Positions 14,270 to 40,235 of a stretch of DNA of 64,000 nucleotides are shown piece by piece (position 1 is the stretch's first letter; each line of letters opens with the position of its first letter). A program made the position numbers and the translations under genes. This DNA comes from a virus, in the IMG/VR virus record IMGVR_UViG_3300005337_000003, positions 65,799-129,798 of that record; one strand, 5' to 3'. A model generated the notes under the pieces. It saw only the letters and a list, made by a program, of their open reading frames with translations, was not told the origin of the DNA and ran no database searches.

Positions 14270-15928
14270 TCACAAACGAGACAATCCACTCCGTATGATC
14301 AGCTCATATAGTTCAGAGGCCCAATTCGAAGCCGAAAACTTGTCCCAGGCCAACTTAAATCCATTCTCAGCTATACTATTGCGTACGTCTGGATTTCTAT
14401 ACAAAAAGTCAAGGGCTTGGGTCAATTCGTATTTGTTCCTGTAGTAAACACAATGATACATGTCCATGAAATACTTTTCGATACCTGGAAATACCCGCAT
14501 AAGGGCACAACTGCCGGCAGCCATGGCTCCCAGGTTACGAGGAGTAAAATAATCCTCTACATCCCAATAATTATTCTCACAAATTACCGCATACGATTCA
14601 TTATATAATTTGGGGGTTTCACGAACGGGTAATACACCATTAACAAATCCTGATCCATAAAAAACAACCTGAGTCGGGTAATTAGCCTTCACCAACTCAT
14701 AAATTTCCTTACGACTCTCACCTCCAGGAAGATGGCTGTAGAGGTTGCCTGCGTATGCTATTTTACCCTCTTGCAGCTGTTGATTGGGTAAAAACCTCCA
14801 ACTCTGGATAGGCTCCCATATAAATTCGCATGGCTTGTTCAGGATTCTTCGATATACCTGGCGTTGTTCCCCGCTGAAGGGCACCAGGTAGAGATCCACT
14901 ATCGGTTGGAATTCAATAAAGCTTTGGGATGGGAAAGGGGAATAATCGCCGGTCCACATAACAAAAGAGGCGCCGGTTTGTTCCTTTAGGATACGACAGT
15001 GCTCCATGTACATAGATGCCTGGTATAGTATCGTATGGGGCTTAAAATCAATTGCCTTCTGTAGGTCACCATCAAACAGGAACACATTATACTTTTCCGA
15101 TAAGGCCCGGCTCAAATCCCCAAAATATCCATCATCCGAAATATGCAACTGGTAGTCCATGGGGATCCATAAAAGATTCTGCCGTACTTCCTGTTCCGGA
15201 ATCGCCGTGTAATTAAAGCGCGGGTGATCCTTAAGGTAATCAGGCATCTGTAATTTATCATAAACCATAGGCTCTCCCCATAAGTCAGGATATACCGGAT
15301 GCAGATCCGTATCTTCATTTCCGGGAGTCCAGGCCAGATATTTAGACATATAATTCTTACGTATCTCGGAACTATGAGAGAAAGTGCTCAACTTGTATCG
15401 GATAGTCTTCAGGCTTTGTGCCCAGCCAAAATGAAGCACTGTACCACTCAACAACTCTGTGTCGTCTGCCATAGCTACTACACGTTCCAATCTTACCGGG
15501 TGCTGATCATCCGCGTAGTAATGCTCCCAATCTCTAAAAAAATGCATGAACCCGGCCACTTTATAATACCGAGCCTGCTTAGATTCCAATTGCTCCAGCA
15601 GTTTTTTGGGTTCCAAATATATCTCATCGGCATCGATACGGAATATCACATCGAAGTCGGCAGAATGTTTATACCTCTCACTTATATGCTCTGCTTCCGA
15701 ACCAAACCGATCGTGGGCCTCCCAAATCAGCTTATGGCCTAGAACTTCTGAAGCGATCTTAAATATTTGAGCTTCCGTATCAGGACAAGTGAGGTTAGCC
15801 GAAAACCCAAAGGATGGCTGACGACTATAAGCAATGTGGAATTTATCAACCACACCGTAAACGCTGATTAATGCCTCTCTTAAAAGTTCAGCTCCGTAAT
15901 GAATGGCACAAAACCCAAGTACTTTCAT
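14270..15928 (-). CDS. Two-domain glycosyltransferase (GT-A-like + CgeB/YkvP-like GT-B)
   Basis: IDADEI DxD motif; C-terminal YFTPRNLGAMAAG...RNSIAENG typical of Glyco_trans_1_2. Confidence 0.75.
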   Translation of the reverse strand: MKVLGFCAIHYGAELLREALISVYGVVDKFHIAYSRQPSFGFSANLTCPDTEAQIFKIASEVLGHKLIWEAHDRFGSEAEHISERYKHSADFDVIFRIDADEIYLEPKKLLEQLESKQARYYKVAGFMHFFRDWEHYYADDQHPVRLERVVAMADDTELLSGTVLHFGWAQSLKTIRYKLSTFSHSSEIRKNYMSKYLAWTPGNEDTDLHPVYPDLWGEPMVYDKLQMPDYLKDHPRFNYTAIPEQEVRQNLLWIPMDYQLHISDDGYFGDLSRALSEKYNVFLFDGDLQKAIDFKPHTILYQASMYMEHCRILKEQTGASFVMWTGDYSPFPSQSFIEFQPIVDLYLVPFSGEQRQVYRRILNKPCEFIWEPIQSWRFLPNQQLQEGKIAYAGNLYSHLPGGESRKEIYELVKANYPTQVVFYGSGFVNGVLPVRETPKLYNESYAVICENNYWDVEDYFTPRNLGAMAAGSCALMRVFPGIEKYFMDMYHCVYYRNKYELTQALDFLYRNPDVRNSIAENGFKLAWDKFSASNWASELYELIIRSGLSRL

Positions 15929-16128
15929 TCTTTTTTGCCTTGTGATTTATAAAATGTATCTGCGGTGTATAAGGCGCGAGTGATCAACTCGTCAGCTATG
16001 GAAATATTTTTAGAGGTGGCTGTCTCAGAAATAGAAGCGTAAGCCATTCCGTTTCCATATACTCCGTTCAACATAGCTATCAATACCTTAATAGCCAGTT
16101 CTTCCTTTTTTTCTGATAATTCACTCAT
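15925..16128 (-). CDS. Small hypothetical protein
   Basis: 67 aa, ATGA-type overlaps on both sides. Confidence 0.6.
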   Translation of the reverse strand: MSELSEKKEELAIKVLIAMLNGVYGNGMAYASISETATSKNISIADELITRALYTADTFYKSQGKKE

Positions 16129-16829
16129 TGTTTTAGTTTTTCTATTTTAGCTTGCATCATATCACGGACTGTCGGCCATTCTTCTTTATCTTGCTCAATA
16201 ACCCAATCTATTCCCTTTATAGAATAAATAGTACTCGATCCCTCATGGAAAGATTTAAGTTTGTCATACATCACTGTGGGGAAGCCAAGTTCTCGACATA
16301 TCGAATATATCCAGTTATCTCCGAACCAGACCTTGATGTTTTTAGGTATGGGGTATACGCAGTGGGCATGCTGCCTGTTTAAAAATATAGCTATTCCTGG
16401 AAATCCTTCTGGGATCCACCTGTGCATATCAGATAAAAGATAATCTATATCGTGGAAAATTTCTTCCTTATTAACCTCTGTGGGAATAGGTACATAATTG
16501 GGGTATACCATCCAGAATTTTTGTAAAGCTCCTACAAAATCACGATGCAATATAATGTCAGAATTCAATATTCCCAAGTGCGTGTACTGCTCATTATTAA
16601 TAAATTCCTCCAAGAAGAAATTCCAGGCAGGATTCACATAAATATTCTCAGGCCTATCTACAATCTTGACATTGGGTAGATCCCTGTAATTATCAAATAA
16701 TATCTGTATTTCTTGGTTGTAACCATTAGCAAATAACATCACATCCACCGGGTGGTGAACAACCGACTCTATGCATTGTCGTGTAACATGCGGATTATTA
16801 ACTATAGGGATGCACAATAGAAGTTTCAT
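16125..16829 (-). CDS. GT2-like glycosyltransferase
   Basis: IPIVN...ILNSDI...WFGDNW...FHEGSST. Confidence 0.78.
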   Translation of the reverse strand: MKLLLCIPIVNNPHVTRQCIESVVHHPVDVMLFANGYNQEIQILFDNYRDLPNVKIVDRPENIYVNPAWNFFLEEFINNEQYTHLGILNSDIILHRDFVGALQKFWMVYPNYVPIPTEVNKEEIFHDIDYLLSDMHRWIPEGFPGIAIFLNRQHAHCVYPIPKNIKVWFGDNWIYSICRELGFPTVMYDKLKSFHEGSSTIYSIKGIDWVIEQDKEEWPTVRDMMQAKIEKLKQ

Positions 16830-17398
16830 ATCTTATTTACGCACTCCTTAAACTCATCTACCGTAATTACAGTCATCACTGGTGTATTTTTTCGATTAGC
16901 CTCATACCAGGCCCAATCAAATTTTGACATGTCCAGATTCGAACCCACAGGCTCGTGTCTGGGGAAAATCAATCCACATCCTTGATCGGTATCGATAATG
17001 AACATGACATCTTTACTTATCTCCTTTAATGCTGCCCATGCCTTCCAGCCATCTCCGTTGAGATAGGGATTCTGATGCTCTTCTGTTGGCGGTAAAAGAT
17101 CATGAACCATAACTATGCCTCCAGGACACACCTTGTAAGCGTTTAATATATCTTTAGCTACCTGATCCGATCCGTGCCAGCCATCTATAAAACAAATGTG
17201 AAATTGCTCCTGGTTATGAGCAAAGAATTGATCGGACGTCATCTTATGCGTAGCTGCGCTACCAATATCGGGGTCTACGCCTACTTTGTAATCGCAGCTT
17301 ATCTGGCTGAAGCACTCTCCCCACTGTACTCCTATTTCAAGGTACTTTTTAGCTCCCAGCTTGTCAATAAATAACTGTAGTATTTCCCAACGTTTCAT
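16826..17398 (-). CDS. Class I SAM methyltransferase (Methyltransf_24-like)
   Basis: YLEIGV...FIDGWH...GGIVMVHD. Confidence 0.8.
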   Translation of the reverse strand: MKRWEILQLFIDKLGAKKYLEIGVQWGECFSQISCDYKVGVDPDIGSAATHKMTSDQFFAHNQEQFHICFIDGWHGSDQVAKDILNAYKVCPGGIVMVHDLLPPTEEHQNPYLNGDGWKAWAALKEISKDVMFIIDTDQGCGLIFPRHEPVGSNLDMSKFDWAWYEANRKNTPVMTVITVDEFKECVNKI

Positions 17399-18126
17399 CG
17401 TATTATCTCCTTATTATAGTTAGGGTGCAGTTTCAAAAAATCTGGAAGAGTGGTCTTATCGAAGGGTGTTGTGGTTTGCCAGATTTGACGTGACACAGGG
17501 TGTAGCCATTCTGCTTTCTCGTTGAGCCAATTGTCGTAAATGACTTTCCATTCGGGACGTAATTCCGAACGATGGCCTGATAGGCGCCATTTATACTCGG
17601 CTATCTGGTCACTTTGTGCGTATGAAAAATGATAGACTGTTAGGTTGACTTCTCCCTGTCCGGAATTTCTTCGCAGATTAAAGAAGCGAATGGGCCTGAA
17701 GCCATCTGTGCAAACCTCATTAAATGAGCGCCAAAAATTGAGATAACCTGCCACGCCATAGGCTCTATAAGGACCTTCATATACTTCATCTAGTACTCTG
17801 GATAAGGCCCCAGGATGGAAGACCTCATCTGAATCTACAGCAACTAACACGTCAAATCCGGCAGCGTGAGCAAATGCAGCATCCCGGTGTTGACCTTCAG
17901 ACCTGTAAACCGCATGATCCCACACCAACTTAGAACCCAAAACCCTGTAGGCAATATCATAGAGCTCACCCTCTGTGTCTGGACAAGGAATATCTGTACT
18001 GTATCCCTGCGAACCTACAGGTGTGTAGAGTACTACAAACTTGTCTACTACAGCTTCTACACTTTTGAGGGAGGCCTCTAAATACTCTTTGCCGTAGAGG
18101 ATCGGCATATATCCGATTACTTTCAT
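17395..18126 (-). CDS. GT-A-like glycosyltransferase, paralog of the N-domain of 14270..15928
   Basis: MKVIG...YGKEYL...VDSDEV...YHFSYAQS aligns by eye with MKVLG...YGAELL...IDADEI...LHFGWAQS. Confidence 0.7.
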   Translation of the reverse strand: MKVIGYMPILYGKEYLEASLKSVEAVVDKFVVLYTPVGSQGYSTDIPCPDTEGELYDIAYRVLGSKLVWDHAVYRSEGQHRDAAFAHAAGFDVLVAVDSDEVFHPGALSRVLDEVYEGPYRAYGVAGYLNFWRSFNEVCTDGFRPIRFFNLRRNSGQGEVNLTVYHFSYAQSDQIAEYKWRLSGHRSELRPEWKVIYDNWLNEKAEWLHPVSRQIWQTTTPFDKTTLPDFLKLHPNYNKEIIR

Positions 18127-18728
18127 TTATATTGATTCATTACTTGTTTAACTTGTTCTGGTGTTAACCATTTATCTATCGCGTGGTAGGTCAAAGTCCC
18201 CAGGCTAAATACAGACTCTATTCCCCATCTAAGGCAAACATCTCTGGGCGCTAAATTGCCCAGGTTATGGTAGTACATTGTATTGCAAAAATACACATCC
18301 TCATTTATATTCTTCCAGGGGTGGTTATTAATTACCTGCAGCATGACATTAGGATCTCTTAAGCTGAGGCCTCCGTTACCTCCCCGAGCCTGGAACCCCC
18401 AAGGGGCACCAACATAGGAGTATTCAAAAAAATCCTGTATACCAAATCTCAGGAACCCGCTATCGCTTTGAAAAATCAATACCCGATCATAATTTATATA
18501 CTTTTCCCAAAAGGCAACAGAGGTTAACAATCGGTTGTATCCGCCTAACTCAGAAATCTCGCACTCAAAAAAAGTAGCTTCAGGAAACAAGTTAGACCAT
18601 TCCCGTATCTTCGAACCTGTAGTCCATATCACCAGATCGTGATTGTAATCAATATAGTCCCTGTGACGATTAATCACAGGAACTATATCTACATTGCGTG
18701 TTTCTACGATTGTTAAACAGAGCTTCAT
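18123..18728 (-). CDS. DUF5672-like glycosyltransferase-associated protein
   Basis: LIFQSDS...YVGAPW...GGNGGLSLR...NEDVYF. Confidence 0.75.
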   Translation of the reverse strand: MKLCLTIVETRNVDIVPVINRHRDYIDYNHDLVIWTTGSKIREWSNLFPEATFFECEISELGGYNRLLTSVAFWEKYINYDRVLIFQSDSGFLRFGIQDFFEYSYVGAPWGFQARGGNGGLSLRDPNVMLQVINNHPWKNINEDVYFCNTMYYHNLGNLAPRDVCLRWGIESVFSLGTLTYHAIDKWLTPEQVKQVMNQYK

Positions 18729-18730
18729 TG

Positions 18731-18984
18731 TTACATCAAATTAGCTGCAGAGGTATATATTGCGGTACCGACAGTGGGTTCTACATAATCTGAAAACCCT
18801 TTAGTTCCGATGCCTCCTCCGTATTCAAATTTCATTCCGCCTCCACAGGCACCTGTAATTCCGCTACTTGCGACCCTTCCGTGGGAAGTGAATTCATCAG
18901 AAATCACTTGGAATTTATTTAAAAGTGGAGAACTCTTGTATTTATCATCGTTATCCCTTAAACCTGCAGATAACGATGTTGCTA
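18731..18984 (-). CDS. Start-less open frame; putative -1 frameshift extension of 18982..19194
   Basis: 84 sense codons ending 2 nt before the next ATG; slippery site plus hairpin. Confidence 0.5.
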
Positions 18985-19194
18985 AAAAGGGCGAACGGCC
19001 ACCTCCACCTGATCCAGCTGCTCTTTATAATTGACAGGGATATTCATGGCAGCGGCCATTGATGCGCTGTGTTGACTAACAGAAAGTATTGTACTTAATT
19101 CTACAATTACCTTCGATTTAAGTCCTTCTTCTTTTTCCTGCTTGTCAGTAGGATGCCACAGGATCACATACTGAAATAGTTGTTGTTTTGTCAT
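18982..19194 (-). CDS. Small conserved phage protein ending VRPF
   Basis: LFQYVILWHPT...LDQVEVAVRPF. Confidence 0.75.
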   Translation of the reverse strand: MTKQQLFQYVILWHPTDKQEKEEGLKSKVIVELSTILSVSQHSASMAAAMNIPVNYKEQLDQVEVAVRPF

Positions 19195-19235: not shown

Positions 19236-19619
19236 TTAACTTCTTATTACCTGGTAAAACTTAGGACGTCTAAACCGGTAATTAGCCCCGTCCTGATAAA
19301 CAATTGTAAAGCTGAAATAGTCATTATTCTCAGTAATACAAACAACACAATTTCTTCCAGCAAGATCTATACAGGAAGCAATTGAGCCTGAATCCACATT
19401 GATATACTTCCGAATAGTAAACGTCTGATCTAAATCATTGGCCGTGTCCTGTAGTCTAATAACAGAATACATCAATTCTACAACAACATGGGAAGATGGG
19501 TTTGGAAGTTTGACCTGGGTGTATGCGGCGCCGTTCCAATGCTCCACCTGATTATATCTGGATATTTCTACCTGGCCGCGAAGGGTCCAACTTATAAGTA
19601 TTAATAGGATTATTCGCAT
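19236..19619 (-). CDS. Secreted hypothetical protein
   Basis: N-terminal signal-like MRIILLILISW. Confidence 0.55.
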   Translation of the reverse strand: MRIILLILISWTLRGQVEISRYNQVEHWNGAAYTQVKLPNPSSHVVVELMYSVIRLQDTANDLDQTFTIRKYINVDSGSIASCIDLAGRNCVVCITENNDYFSFTIVYQDGANYRFRRPKFYQVIRS

Positions 19620-19816
19620 TCTTCTATTTGATTTATTTTCATTTCTAATTTTAAAAGCTTAAGCATCCTGGCAACCTCATGTATATAGAATTTGCCGCTT
19701 TCTAATTTCCGGTAATACGTTACCTGGTGGAAGCCTGCATATCTGGATATTCGCGGAATAGACACATTAAGTTCTTTACGCCTTGACTCTATTGTTTTTA
19801 ATATGTCCGTGTCCAT
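19610..19816 (-). CDS. XRE-like HTH protein
   Basis: RRKELNVSIPRISRYAGFHQVTYYRKLE. Confidence 0.65.
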   Translation of the reverse strand: MDTDILKTIESRRKELNVSIPRISRYAGFHQVTYYRKLESGKFYIHEVARMLKLLKLEMKINQIEECE

Positions 19817-39374: not shown

Positions 39375-40235
39375 ATGGCTAAAAAAGACAAGAGAGAGCC
39401 TATTATAGGCTACAAGGTATTTAATTCAGACTTAACGTGTCGTGGATTTCAATTTGAGATAGGTAAGAGTTACAAACACACAGGCGAGTTAAAGATATGT
39501 AACAGTGGATTCCACTTCTGCCTTAATGCATCACATTGTTTCTCATATTATAGCTTCGACCTTAAAAATGCAGTTTGCGAGGTAGAGGCCCTGGGGGACA
39601 TTCAAACACACAGTGAGGATTCAAAAGTTGTGACTAATCACATTAAGATCATCCGTCAGCTGACCTGGGATGAGGTATTAAAAGTTTCCAATGAAGGAAC
39701 TGGCAATACTGGACACGGCAACGCCGGTAATGACAACGCCGGTAATCGCAACGCCGGTAATCGCAACGCCGGTAATCGCAACGCCGGTAATTACAACGCC
39801 GGTAATCGCAACGCCGGTTATGGCAACGCCGGTAATGACAACGCCGGTAATTACAACGCCGGTAATCGCAACGCCGGTTATGGCAACGCCGGTAATGACA
39901 ACGCCGGAGCGTTTAACACTACCGAATCATTCAGAATGTTTAACAAGCAATCTAAATGGACATTTGAAGATTTCAGGAAATCGAAAGCATTTGAACTACT
40001 ACACACAATCGACACGACCATGTGGATAGCCTCCTACCAAATGTCAGAACAAGAAAAGAAGGATCATCCACACCATGTAACAACTGGTGGATATATTAAG
40101 AACATTCCATTTAAGGAAGCTTTCGTTAATAAATGGAATAATTGGAGTGAATCAAGTCAGGAGGCTTTTAAAAATCTGCCAGGTTTTGATTCTAAAGTAT
40201 TTGAGGAAGCCACAGGCGTTAAAGTAAAAAAATAA
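39375..40235 (+). CDS. Pentapeptide (NAGNx) repeat protein with DUF7666-like N-terminus
   Basis: GYKVFNSDLTCRGFQFEIG...GFHFC; NAGNR repeats. Confidence 0.8.
   Translation: MAKKDKREPIIGYKVFNSDLTCRGFQFEIGKSYKHTGELKICNSGFHFCLNASHCFSYYSFDLKNAVCEVEALGDIQTHSEDSKVVTNHIKIIRQLTWDEVLKVSNEGTGNTGHGNAGNDNAGNRNAGNRNAGNRNAGNYNAGNRNAGYGNAGNDNAGNYNAGNRNAGYGNAGNDNAGAFNTTESFRMFNKQSKWTFEDFRKSKAFELLHTIDTTMWIASYQMSEQEKKDHPHHVTTGGYIKNIPFKEAFVNKWNNWSESSQEAFKNLPGFDSKVFEEATGVKVKK
39720..39907 (+). repeat. 13 x 15-bp coding tandem repeat
   Basis: AACGCCGGT(A/T)AT-NNC units; 39781-39840 equals 39841-39900. Confidence 0.9.

Follow-up and report, generated by a model that had tools for sequence, protein, structure and literature searches.

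A candidate programmed −1 ribosomal frameshift at the end of a small non-structural gene family of phages

Conserved ribosomal frameshifts in phages are on record for tail assembly chaperones and for capsid or tail proteins that carry C-terminal extensions (PMC5009743), and single phage cases have been described in lysins, methyltransferases, polymerases and other genes (PRFect paper, PMC10885494). The tail chaperone gpG/gpGT of lambda and other long-tailed phages (Xu, Hendrix and Duda 2004, cited in PMC5009743) relies on a −1 shift, shared across the family, close to the 3′ end of a small gene; a short and a long product result, presumably at a constant ratio. In gene 10A/10B of phages T7 and T3, and in the major head protein of Lactobacillus phage A2, the slip takes place at the gene end, and a complete short product and a −1 tail are obtained from one mRNA; all of these are major capsid proteins, and the T3 and A2 extensions are folded Ig-like domains that are displayed on the virion (PMC5009743). 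The NS1′ protein made by West Nile virus and Japanese encephalitis virus (bioRxiv 10.1101/2024.10.16.618579; Firth and Atkins 2009, cited in PMC5009743) uses the heptamer C CCU UUU with an RNA structure a few nucleotides downstream. In E. coli, the most efficient heptamers include those of the H_HH.U_UU.Y class, to which C_CC.U_UU.U and C_CC.U_UU.C belong; of the tetramers, U_UU.C ranks second and U_UU.U third (Sharma et al. 2014, PMC4066793).

The locus described here lies in a stretch of 64,000 nucleotides (the window) that makes up the latter half of an uncultured phage's genome, which is complete at 129.8 kb and has direct terminal repeats. It would share with lambda G/GT a −1 shift near the 3′ end of a small gene that is found throughout a family and gives a short and a long form, with T7, T3 and A2 a slip at the gene end that leaves the short product complete and adds a −1 tail from the same mRNA, and with NS1′ the identical heptamer followed closely by RNA structure. 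The NS1′ system, however, belongs to a eukaryotic RNA virus and has a pseudoknot at a site inside a polyprotein, whereas the present site is at a gene end in a bacterial virus and is followed by a simple hairpin.

All components of the site are on the minus strand. The zero-frame gene (18982–19194; 70 codons plus TAG) encodes, on the basis of ORF reading and AlphaFold2 modeling, a small alpha/beta domain ending VRPF. Its 3′ end reads CGC (18993–18991), CCT (18990–18988), TTT (18987–18985) and TAG (18984–18982). The slippery heptamer C CCU UUU, which has the form X XXY YYZ in the zero frame, was assigned to 18985–18991 from the sequence and from synonymous-site conservation in homologues, and the zero-frame TAG at 18982–18984 abuts it and ends the short product. 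The heptamer is followed by a spacer of 6 nt (TAGCAA) and by the stem arms CATCGTTATC (18978–18969) and GATAACGATG (18955–18946). The coordinates that a first-pass annotation had given for heptamer, spacer and arms were all exact on re-reading of the minus strand. The same annotation had described a stem of 10 bp; the arms are as it described them, but RNAfold adds a U-G pair, giving a predicted stem-loop (18946–18978) of 11 bp (10 Watson-Crick plus one U-G) whose loop is 11 nt long and whose centroid energy is −13.6 kcal/mol.

The −1 frame extends for 84 codons after the Phe (18734–18985; LATSLSAG...AIYTSAANLM), as established by translation and codon-usage score, and its last ten codons (18734–18763) encode a motif, AIYTSAANLM, that was recognized by a motif count across the family. 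Its TAA (18731–18733) lies 2 nt before the ATG (18728) of the next gene, which encodes a DUF5672 protein by family match (18728–18123, minus strand). Both the length of this frame and the distance of its stop from the ATG had been annotated exactly. The absence of an ATG near the start of the frame was also borne out, since a scan for ATG, GTG and TTG placed the earliest possible start at a GTG (18905–18907), 27 codons in. A 58-aa product (P0003) is called by the gene caller from this GTG, and it would still contain the end motif.

Evidence for frameshifting from this genome by itself was only suggestive and did not go beyond chance. The hairpin had z = −1.4 against shuffles of a 71-nt stretch, and 17/200 shuffles folded as well. 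In-frame heptamers numbered 236 in 39,408 codons, five of them within 3 codons of a stop, and in a phage genome as dense as this one a −1 frame is often open after a stop. With both features this frequent, such statistics are non-discriminating. A second slippery heptamer at a stop is present in the window itself, in the form A AAA AAA TAA at 40226–40235 on the plus strand, where it ends a 286-aa ORF (39375–40235); this ORF was rejected as a candidate, its −1 frame running for only 16 codons. Some support from within the genome came from codon usage between the slip site and GTG 18907. Only when read in the −1 frame do these 26 codons resemble coding sequence, with a score of 0.22 (reference for true coding, 0.27 ± 0.16); the other two frames give −1.1 and −1.6. 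Comparison with homologues lifts the case far beyond chance.

Relatives of the 70-aa product were abundant. A phmmer search of 1.84 billion representative proteins returned at least 251 clusters at 50% identity, whose members are nearly all 66–73 aa long and match up to the C terminus, ...[VI]RPF. Longer homologues of the 70-aa protein were searched for and none was found. For comparison of the nucleotide sequences, loci were gathered from IMG/VR (13 loci, reached via the closest relative), from the huge phage LR756501 (735 kb) and from metagenomes (80 loci). The metagenome loci were found with the N-terminal pattern [FY][QE]Y[AV][VI][IL][WF]HP, and because this pattern is N-terminal only there was no selection for the 3′ end among them; the locus search used a 12-sequence alignment, the full family alignment being too diverse. 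Removal of duplicates left 81 unique loci, the window included, while a contig from a metagenome-assembled genome (MAG), L096, was handled separately. Searching IMG/VR directly with the window's own two peptides gave no match, and relatives of the window's extension were found neither by word search nor in GenBank phages. Among GenBank phages the family was present only in the unannotated huge-phage records LR756501 and LR756503. The habitats represented are soil, freshwater (lakes), sludge and sediment, in addition to the 735-kb huge phage.

The sole match in 185,579 species genomes was L096 (JADLHV010000195.1), a 23.6-kb contig binned as a Bacteroidia MAG. It reads CGC CCT TTT TAG, as in the window, and has a 68-aa −1 extension ending LATYTNASSLTN. 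The binning of this contig gives a weak hint that the hosts of the family are Bacteroidota.

The codons at the end of the gene proved to be conserved at synonymous sites. Variation of the Pro and Phe codons among homologues was looked for, and the last Pro codon is CCT in 78/78 loci, against 55/244 (22%) for Pro codons elsewhere in these genes; NCT is also used by the three loci that encode Ala or Ser there. The preceding Arg codon is CGC in 65/77, against 13/86 (15%) elsewhere in the gene. The Phe codon is TTT in 71 loci and TTC in 8 (79/81 together), and the two loci in which Phe is replaced by Leu (L083 and L095) retain C CCT TTG and C CCT TTA; the pattern in the nucleotides thus outlasts the amino-acid change. 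Third-position information at the R, P and F codons is 1.0, 2.0 and 1.35 bits, compared with 0.1–0.76 bits at the ten upstream codons. A U_UUN tetramer is present in 81/81 unique loci and a canonical X XXY YYZ heptamer in 65/81; in the other 16 the first triplet is non-canonical (A, T or G before CCT; GCT; TCT), and these would rely on the U_UUN A-site tetramer alone. Selection at the nucleotide level on the slip site is thus shown by these comparisons of homologous sequences.

The heptamers seen were C_CC.U_UU.U (the majority), C_CC.U_UU.C, C_CC.U_UU.G and C_CC.U_UU.A. All of them belong to patterns measured as shift-prone in E. coli (PMC4066793), although those values come from E. coli reporters with an IS3 pseudoknot and the host here is possibly one of the Bacteroidota. 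A stop codon directly follows the heptamer in 78/81 loci. In L072 and L088 sense codons follow instead, with zero-frame stops 5 and 4 codons further on, and the −1 frame is still open from the heptamer to the end motif. By these two loci an adjacent stop is not required, and the slip is tied to the heptamer rather than to the stop codon.

The frame entered by such a slip was examined in the same loci. Closure of the −1 frame was seen in none: it is open, exactly from the slip site, in every complete locus, with a median length of 62.5 codons (range 30–188) compared with a median of 7.5 for the +1 frame, and where examined it stops shortly ahead of the following gene. Lengths and sequences vary greatly among the extensions, in which Ser, Thr, Gly and Asn are plentiful. 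Nevertheless, a shared end motif, [ST]-Y-x-x-A-[AS]-x-[LIV]-[LM], occurs within the last 30 residues of 69/75 unique extensions, where an estimate from residue composition gives a chance expectation of ~8% of extensions. Among close relatives, similarity at the protein level begins right after the slip site, and in the L014 group 7/8 substitutions within the first 14 codons after the site are synonymous in the −1 frame. By comparison of the loci, the −1 frame is shown to be coding from the slip site onward, usually without a usable start.

In at least one relative the two parts are naturally fused in frame. P0125 (149 aa) contains the domain, a linker and ATYTCAAAVL in one ordinary ORF without a slip site, and a second relative, P0018 (the same locus as L066), is possibly another such fusion, with an in-frame RPF-L... 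encoded by CGT CCT TTC TTG and an end motif that is only loosely similar. An AlphaFold2 model of P0125 was confident for the domain and had a pLDDT of ~50 in the tail, and the motif was not docked onto the domain; the linker of the extension is accordingly predicted to be disordered. As a separate observation, the locus of the 735-kb huge phage (L002; LR756501.1, 2705–3270) has a −1 extension of 188 aa with a long collagen-like G-X-Y repeat (GTSGTSGTSGSSGTSG...). This repeat matches tail-fibre and collagen-like PHROGs, and the usual end motif is absent from this extension.

One alternative is that two separate genes are present, the first being a 70-aa gene that ends at TAG and the second a 58-aa gene that starts, by initiation or reinitiation, at GTG 18907, with the heptamer as a by-product of the R-P-F sequence. 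The gene caller did predict the 58-aa ORF, and a subfamily (L003–L010 and L036) has an ATG or GTG 4 codons after the slip site, from which the tail alone could be made. Moreover, R-P-F is conserved as protein too and forms the last beta-strand of the fold predicted by AlphaFold2, and therefore part of its conservation is structural. The choice among synonymous codons is left unexplained by that, however, and it is at the synonymous sites of CCT and CGC that the heptamer is fixed, while the Phe-to-Leu variants retain it. An internal start was tested as the source of the downstream frame and was rejected: ATG, GTG and TTG are all absent from the −1 ORF of five loci, the first such codon is more than 10 codons in for 43/74 loci, and in many the ORF ends just a few codons after it (for example codon 45/50 in L046, 59/64 in L049 and 66/73 in L075). 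Two further points stand against separate genes in that the frame is open from the slip site itself and, in the window, the stretch ahead of GTG 18907 scores as coding; the in-frame fusions also speak against them. Taken together, an arrangement of two independently translated genes was considered improbable.

A second alternative is transcriptional slippage, in which the polymerase would add one U in a run of five T and the fusion would be translated from the edited mRNA. Such a run is present in most loci (CCT TTT TAR), and a one-base insertion within it would give the same frame. Polymerase slippage usually needs ~7 or more A or T, and the homopolymer is T5 here, which is short for such a site, and only T3 in ten relatives. 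Since those ten loci (CCT TTC, TTG or TTA) retain both X XXY YYZ and an open −1 frame, transcriptional slippage is unlikely, and the C preceding CCT, contributed by the conserved CGC, fits re-pairing of tRNA and not slippage of a polymerase. This reading was given very little weight. Finally, a single 155-codon gene broken by a one-base assembly or sequencing error in the T run, or a decaying gene, would also yield these frames, one extra T being enough to fuse them as a few relatives (L066, P0125) are fused, but this is practically negligible as an explanation because the same break and stop position are shared by ~80 independent assemblies from soil, lakes, sludge and sediment and by the Bacteroidia MAG contig, which excludes sequencing error, and because the 70-aa form is the norm in 251 clusters.

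It is therefore concluded from the comparative data that a programmed −1 ribosomal frameshift is very probably real in a widespread non-structural phage family. We infer that the slip is ribosomal and tandem. In the proposed mechanism, most ribosomes would read the 70 codons and stop at TAG, releasing a compact alpha/beta domain ending VRPF, while a fraction would slip back by one base, tRNA-Pro and tRNA-Phe moving from CCU UUU to pair with CCC UUU. The hairpin, which begins after the 6-nt spacer, would pause the ribosome and probably aid the slip, and the adjacent TAG may also help. Ribosomes that had slipped would decode UUA (Leu) and continue for 84 codons. The resulting long product of 154 residues would have a flexible hypervariable linker after the domain and, near its C terminus, the conserved motif AIYTSAANLM, and would carry the junction peptide ...VRPFLATS... 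(VRPFLATSLSAGLR). Two products of 70 and ~154 aa had been proposed from the window sequence, and the comparison of homologues supports them. The tail motif would then dock a partner, tailed and untailed forms being made in a set ratio.

The role of RNA structure was assessed by scoring, in each locus, the strongest local hairpin starting 2–10 nt past the heptamer, with controls taken from the same loci. The best hairpin 3′ of the site averages −13.2 kcal/mol, and the control offsets of −150, −90 and +90 nt gave −9.7, −10.8 and −7.4 kcal/mol (Wilcoxon p = 8e-7, 0.003 and 1e-8, respectively). The hairpin was more stable than shuffles in 67/79 loci, and several relatives have only weak structure 3′ of the heptamer. 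Stem sequences differ among subfamilies, as would be expected if the signal lay in structure and not in sequence. From these folding comparisons it is probable that the hairpin stimulates the slip.

In dnaX of E. coli, a Shine-Dalgarno-like element upstream of the slip site stimulates a −1 shift. A GGAGG at comparable spacing is present in the window at 19006–19002 (minus strand), 10 nt before the heptamer, where it arises from E-V codons. Such a motif was found in only 19/81 loci, and because of this the upstream stimulator was dropped as part of the signal.

The 70-aa product itself gave few clues from homology. AlphaFold2 returned a model with a pLDDT of 96.6 and a beta-alpha-beta-alpha-alpha-beta domain. 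Neither the 70-aa part nor the extension was matched in Pfam or PHROG, and the 70-aa family had no sequence match among solved structures in the PDB. A Foldseek search with the model of the domain returned nothing at E ≤ 0.001, and the best VIA-align scores (Z ~6; PaaB, PurS and the N-terminal part of ribosomal eL20) are within noise for small alpha/beta folds. Neighbours in the ESM Atlas were viral 'hypothetical protein' clusters only.

The window and the other loci have only the 70-aa gene in common. The nameable neighbours in relatives are a MazG-like pyrophosphatase, sliding clamp, clamp loader, ribonucleotide reductase, methyltransferases, HNH endonucleases and GroEL, and these genes point to an early or DNA-metabolism role, as opposed to a virion part, as far as gene context can indicate. 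The replication-module context of some relatives is not universal, because a T4-type clamp loader (phrog_168) is absent from this phage. The clamp profile (phrog_223) matched neither this phage nor the controls of the search.

It is on account of these neighbour genes, which belong to DNA and nucleotide metabolism in relatives, that the protein is judged to be neither a tail chaperone nor a capsid protein. Unlike lambda G and GT, the gene does not lie between those for the tail tube and the tape measure, and its neighbours are not tail genes. The PHROG and Pfam searches gave no chaperone match to either part, nor did the fold search with its best Z of only ~6. The first-pass annotation's description of a gene outside the tail chaperones was thus sustained. 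The capsid-extension class was considered as well, and the 70-aa product had no capsid family match and no structural-gene neighbours in relatives. In contrast with T7, T3 and A2, the extended protein here would be a 70-aa non-structural one, and what is added would be a disordered linker with a short motif.

The use of frameshifting by the 70-aa family was not found in PMC5009743, in PMC10885494 or in the full-text literature on CCCTTTT or C CCU UUU with phage. The mechanism itself is canonical; what is new is the gene family that uses it. A more tentative proposal, which is possible but on balance doubtful, is that this family represents a third large conserved class of phage frameshifts beside the tail chaperones and the capsid extensions, and the first to affect non-structural genes of the early or DNA-metabolism kind. 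The slip would add not a folded domain but a hypervariable disordered tether (collagen-like in the 735-kb phage) ending in a short linear motif, and would set a fixed ratio of the untethered to the partner-docking form. If this is true, one possibility is that the two forms behave as adaptor and competitor towards some factor of the host or the replisome.

Because gene callers split the locus into the 70-aa gene and either a 58-aa gene or a gap, the proposed 154-aa product is absent from the searched protein sets, as is the corresponding long product in hundreds of related lineages of phages (251 clusters at 50% identity). The combination of a folded domain, a disordered tail and a short motif offers a concrete handle on a family that has no annotation, and P0125 and L066 would serve as natural 'always long' controls. 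Bacteroidota ribosomes ignore Shine-Dalgarno sequences. The compact, well-conserved site, in which the heptamer and a simple hairpin occupy ~50 nt, could thus be a clean −1 frameshift model for Shine-Dalgarno-ignoring hosts, in probable Bacteroidota-type phages.

Upstream of the 70-aa gene on the minus strand are two genes that overlap by 10 nt, at 19236–19619 (127 aa, with a hydrophobic signal-like N terminus, MRIILLILISW...) and 19610–19816 (68 aa), neither of which had a family match. The 70-aa gene had been annotated as lying just upstream of a glycosylation cluster, and this is correct for the window; the relatives, however, adjoin DNA- and nucleotide-metabolism genes and not glycosyltransferases, and adjacency to glycosylation genes was dropped as a family trait, being seen only in this window. 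The downstream run (14270–18728, minus strand) consists of five overlapping or abutting sugar- and methyl-transfer genes, in which the DUF5672 gene is followed by genes for a GT2-like protein (18126–17395), a methyltransferase (17398–16826), a second GT2-like protein (16829–16125) and a 552-aa Glyco_trans_1_2 protein (15928–14270), all on the minus strand. This run may be a virion or DNA glycosylation module. Beyond it are genes for tail-fibre-like and glycine-rich proteins (13808–12060 and 11674–10388).
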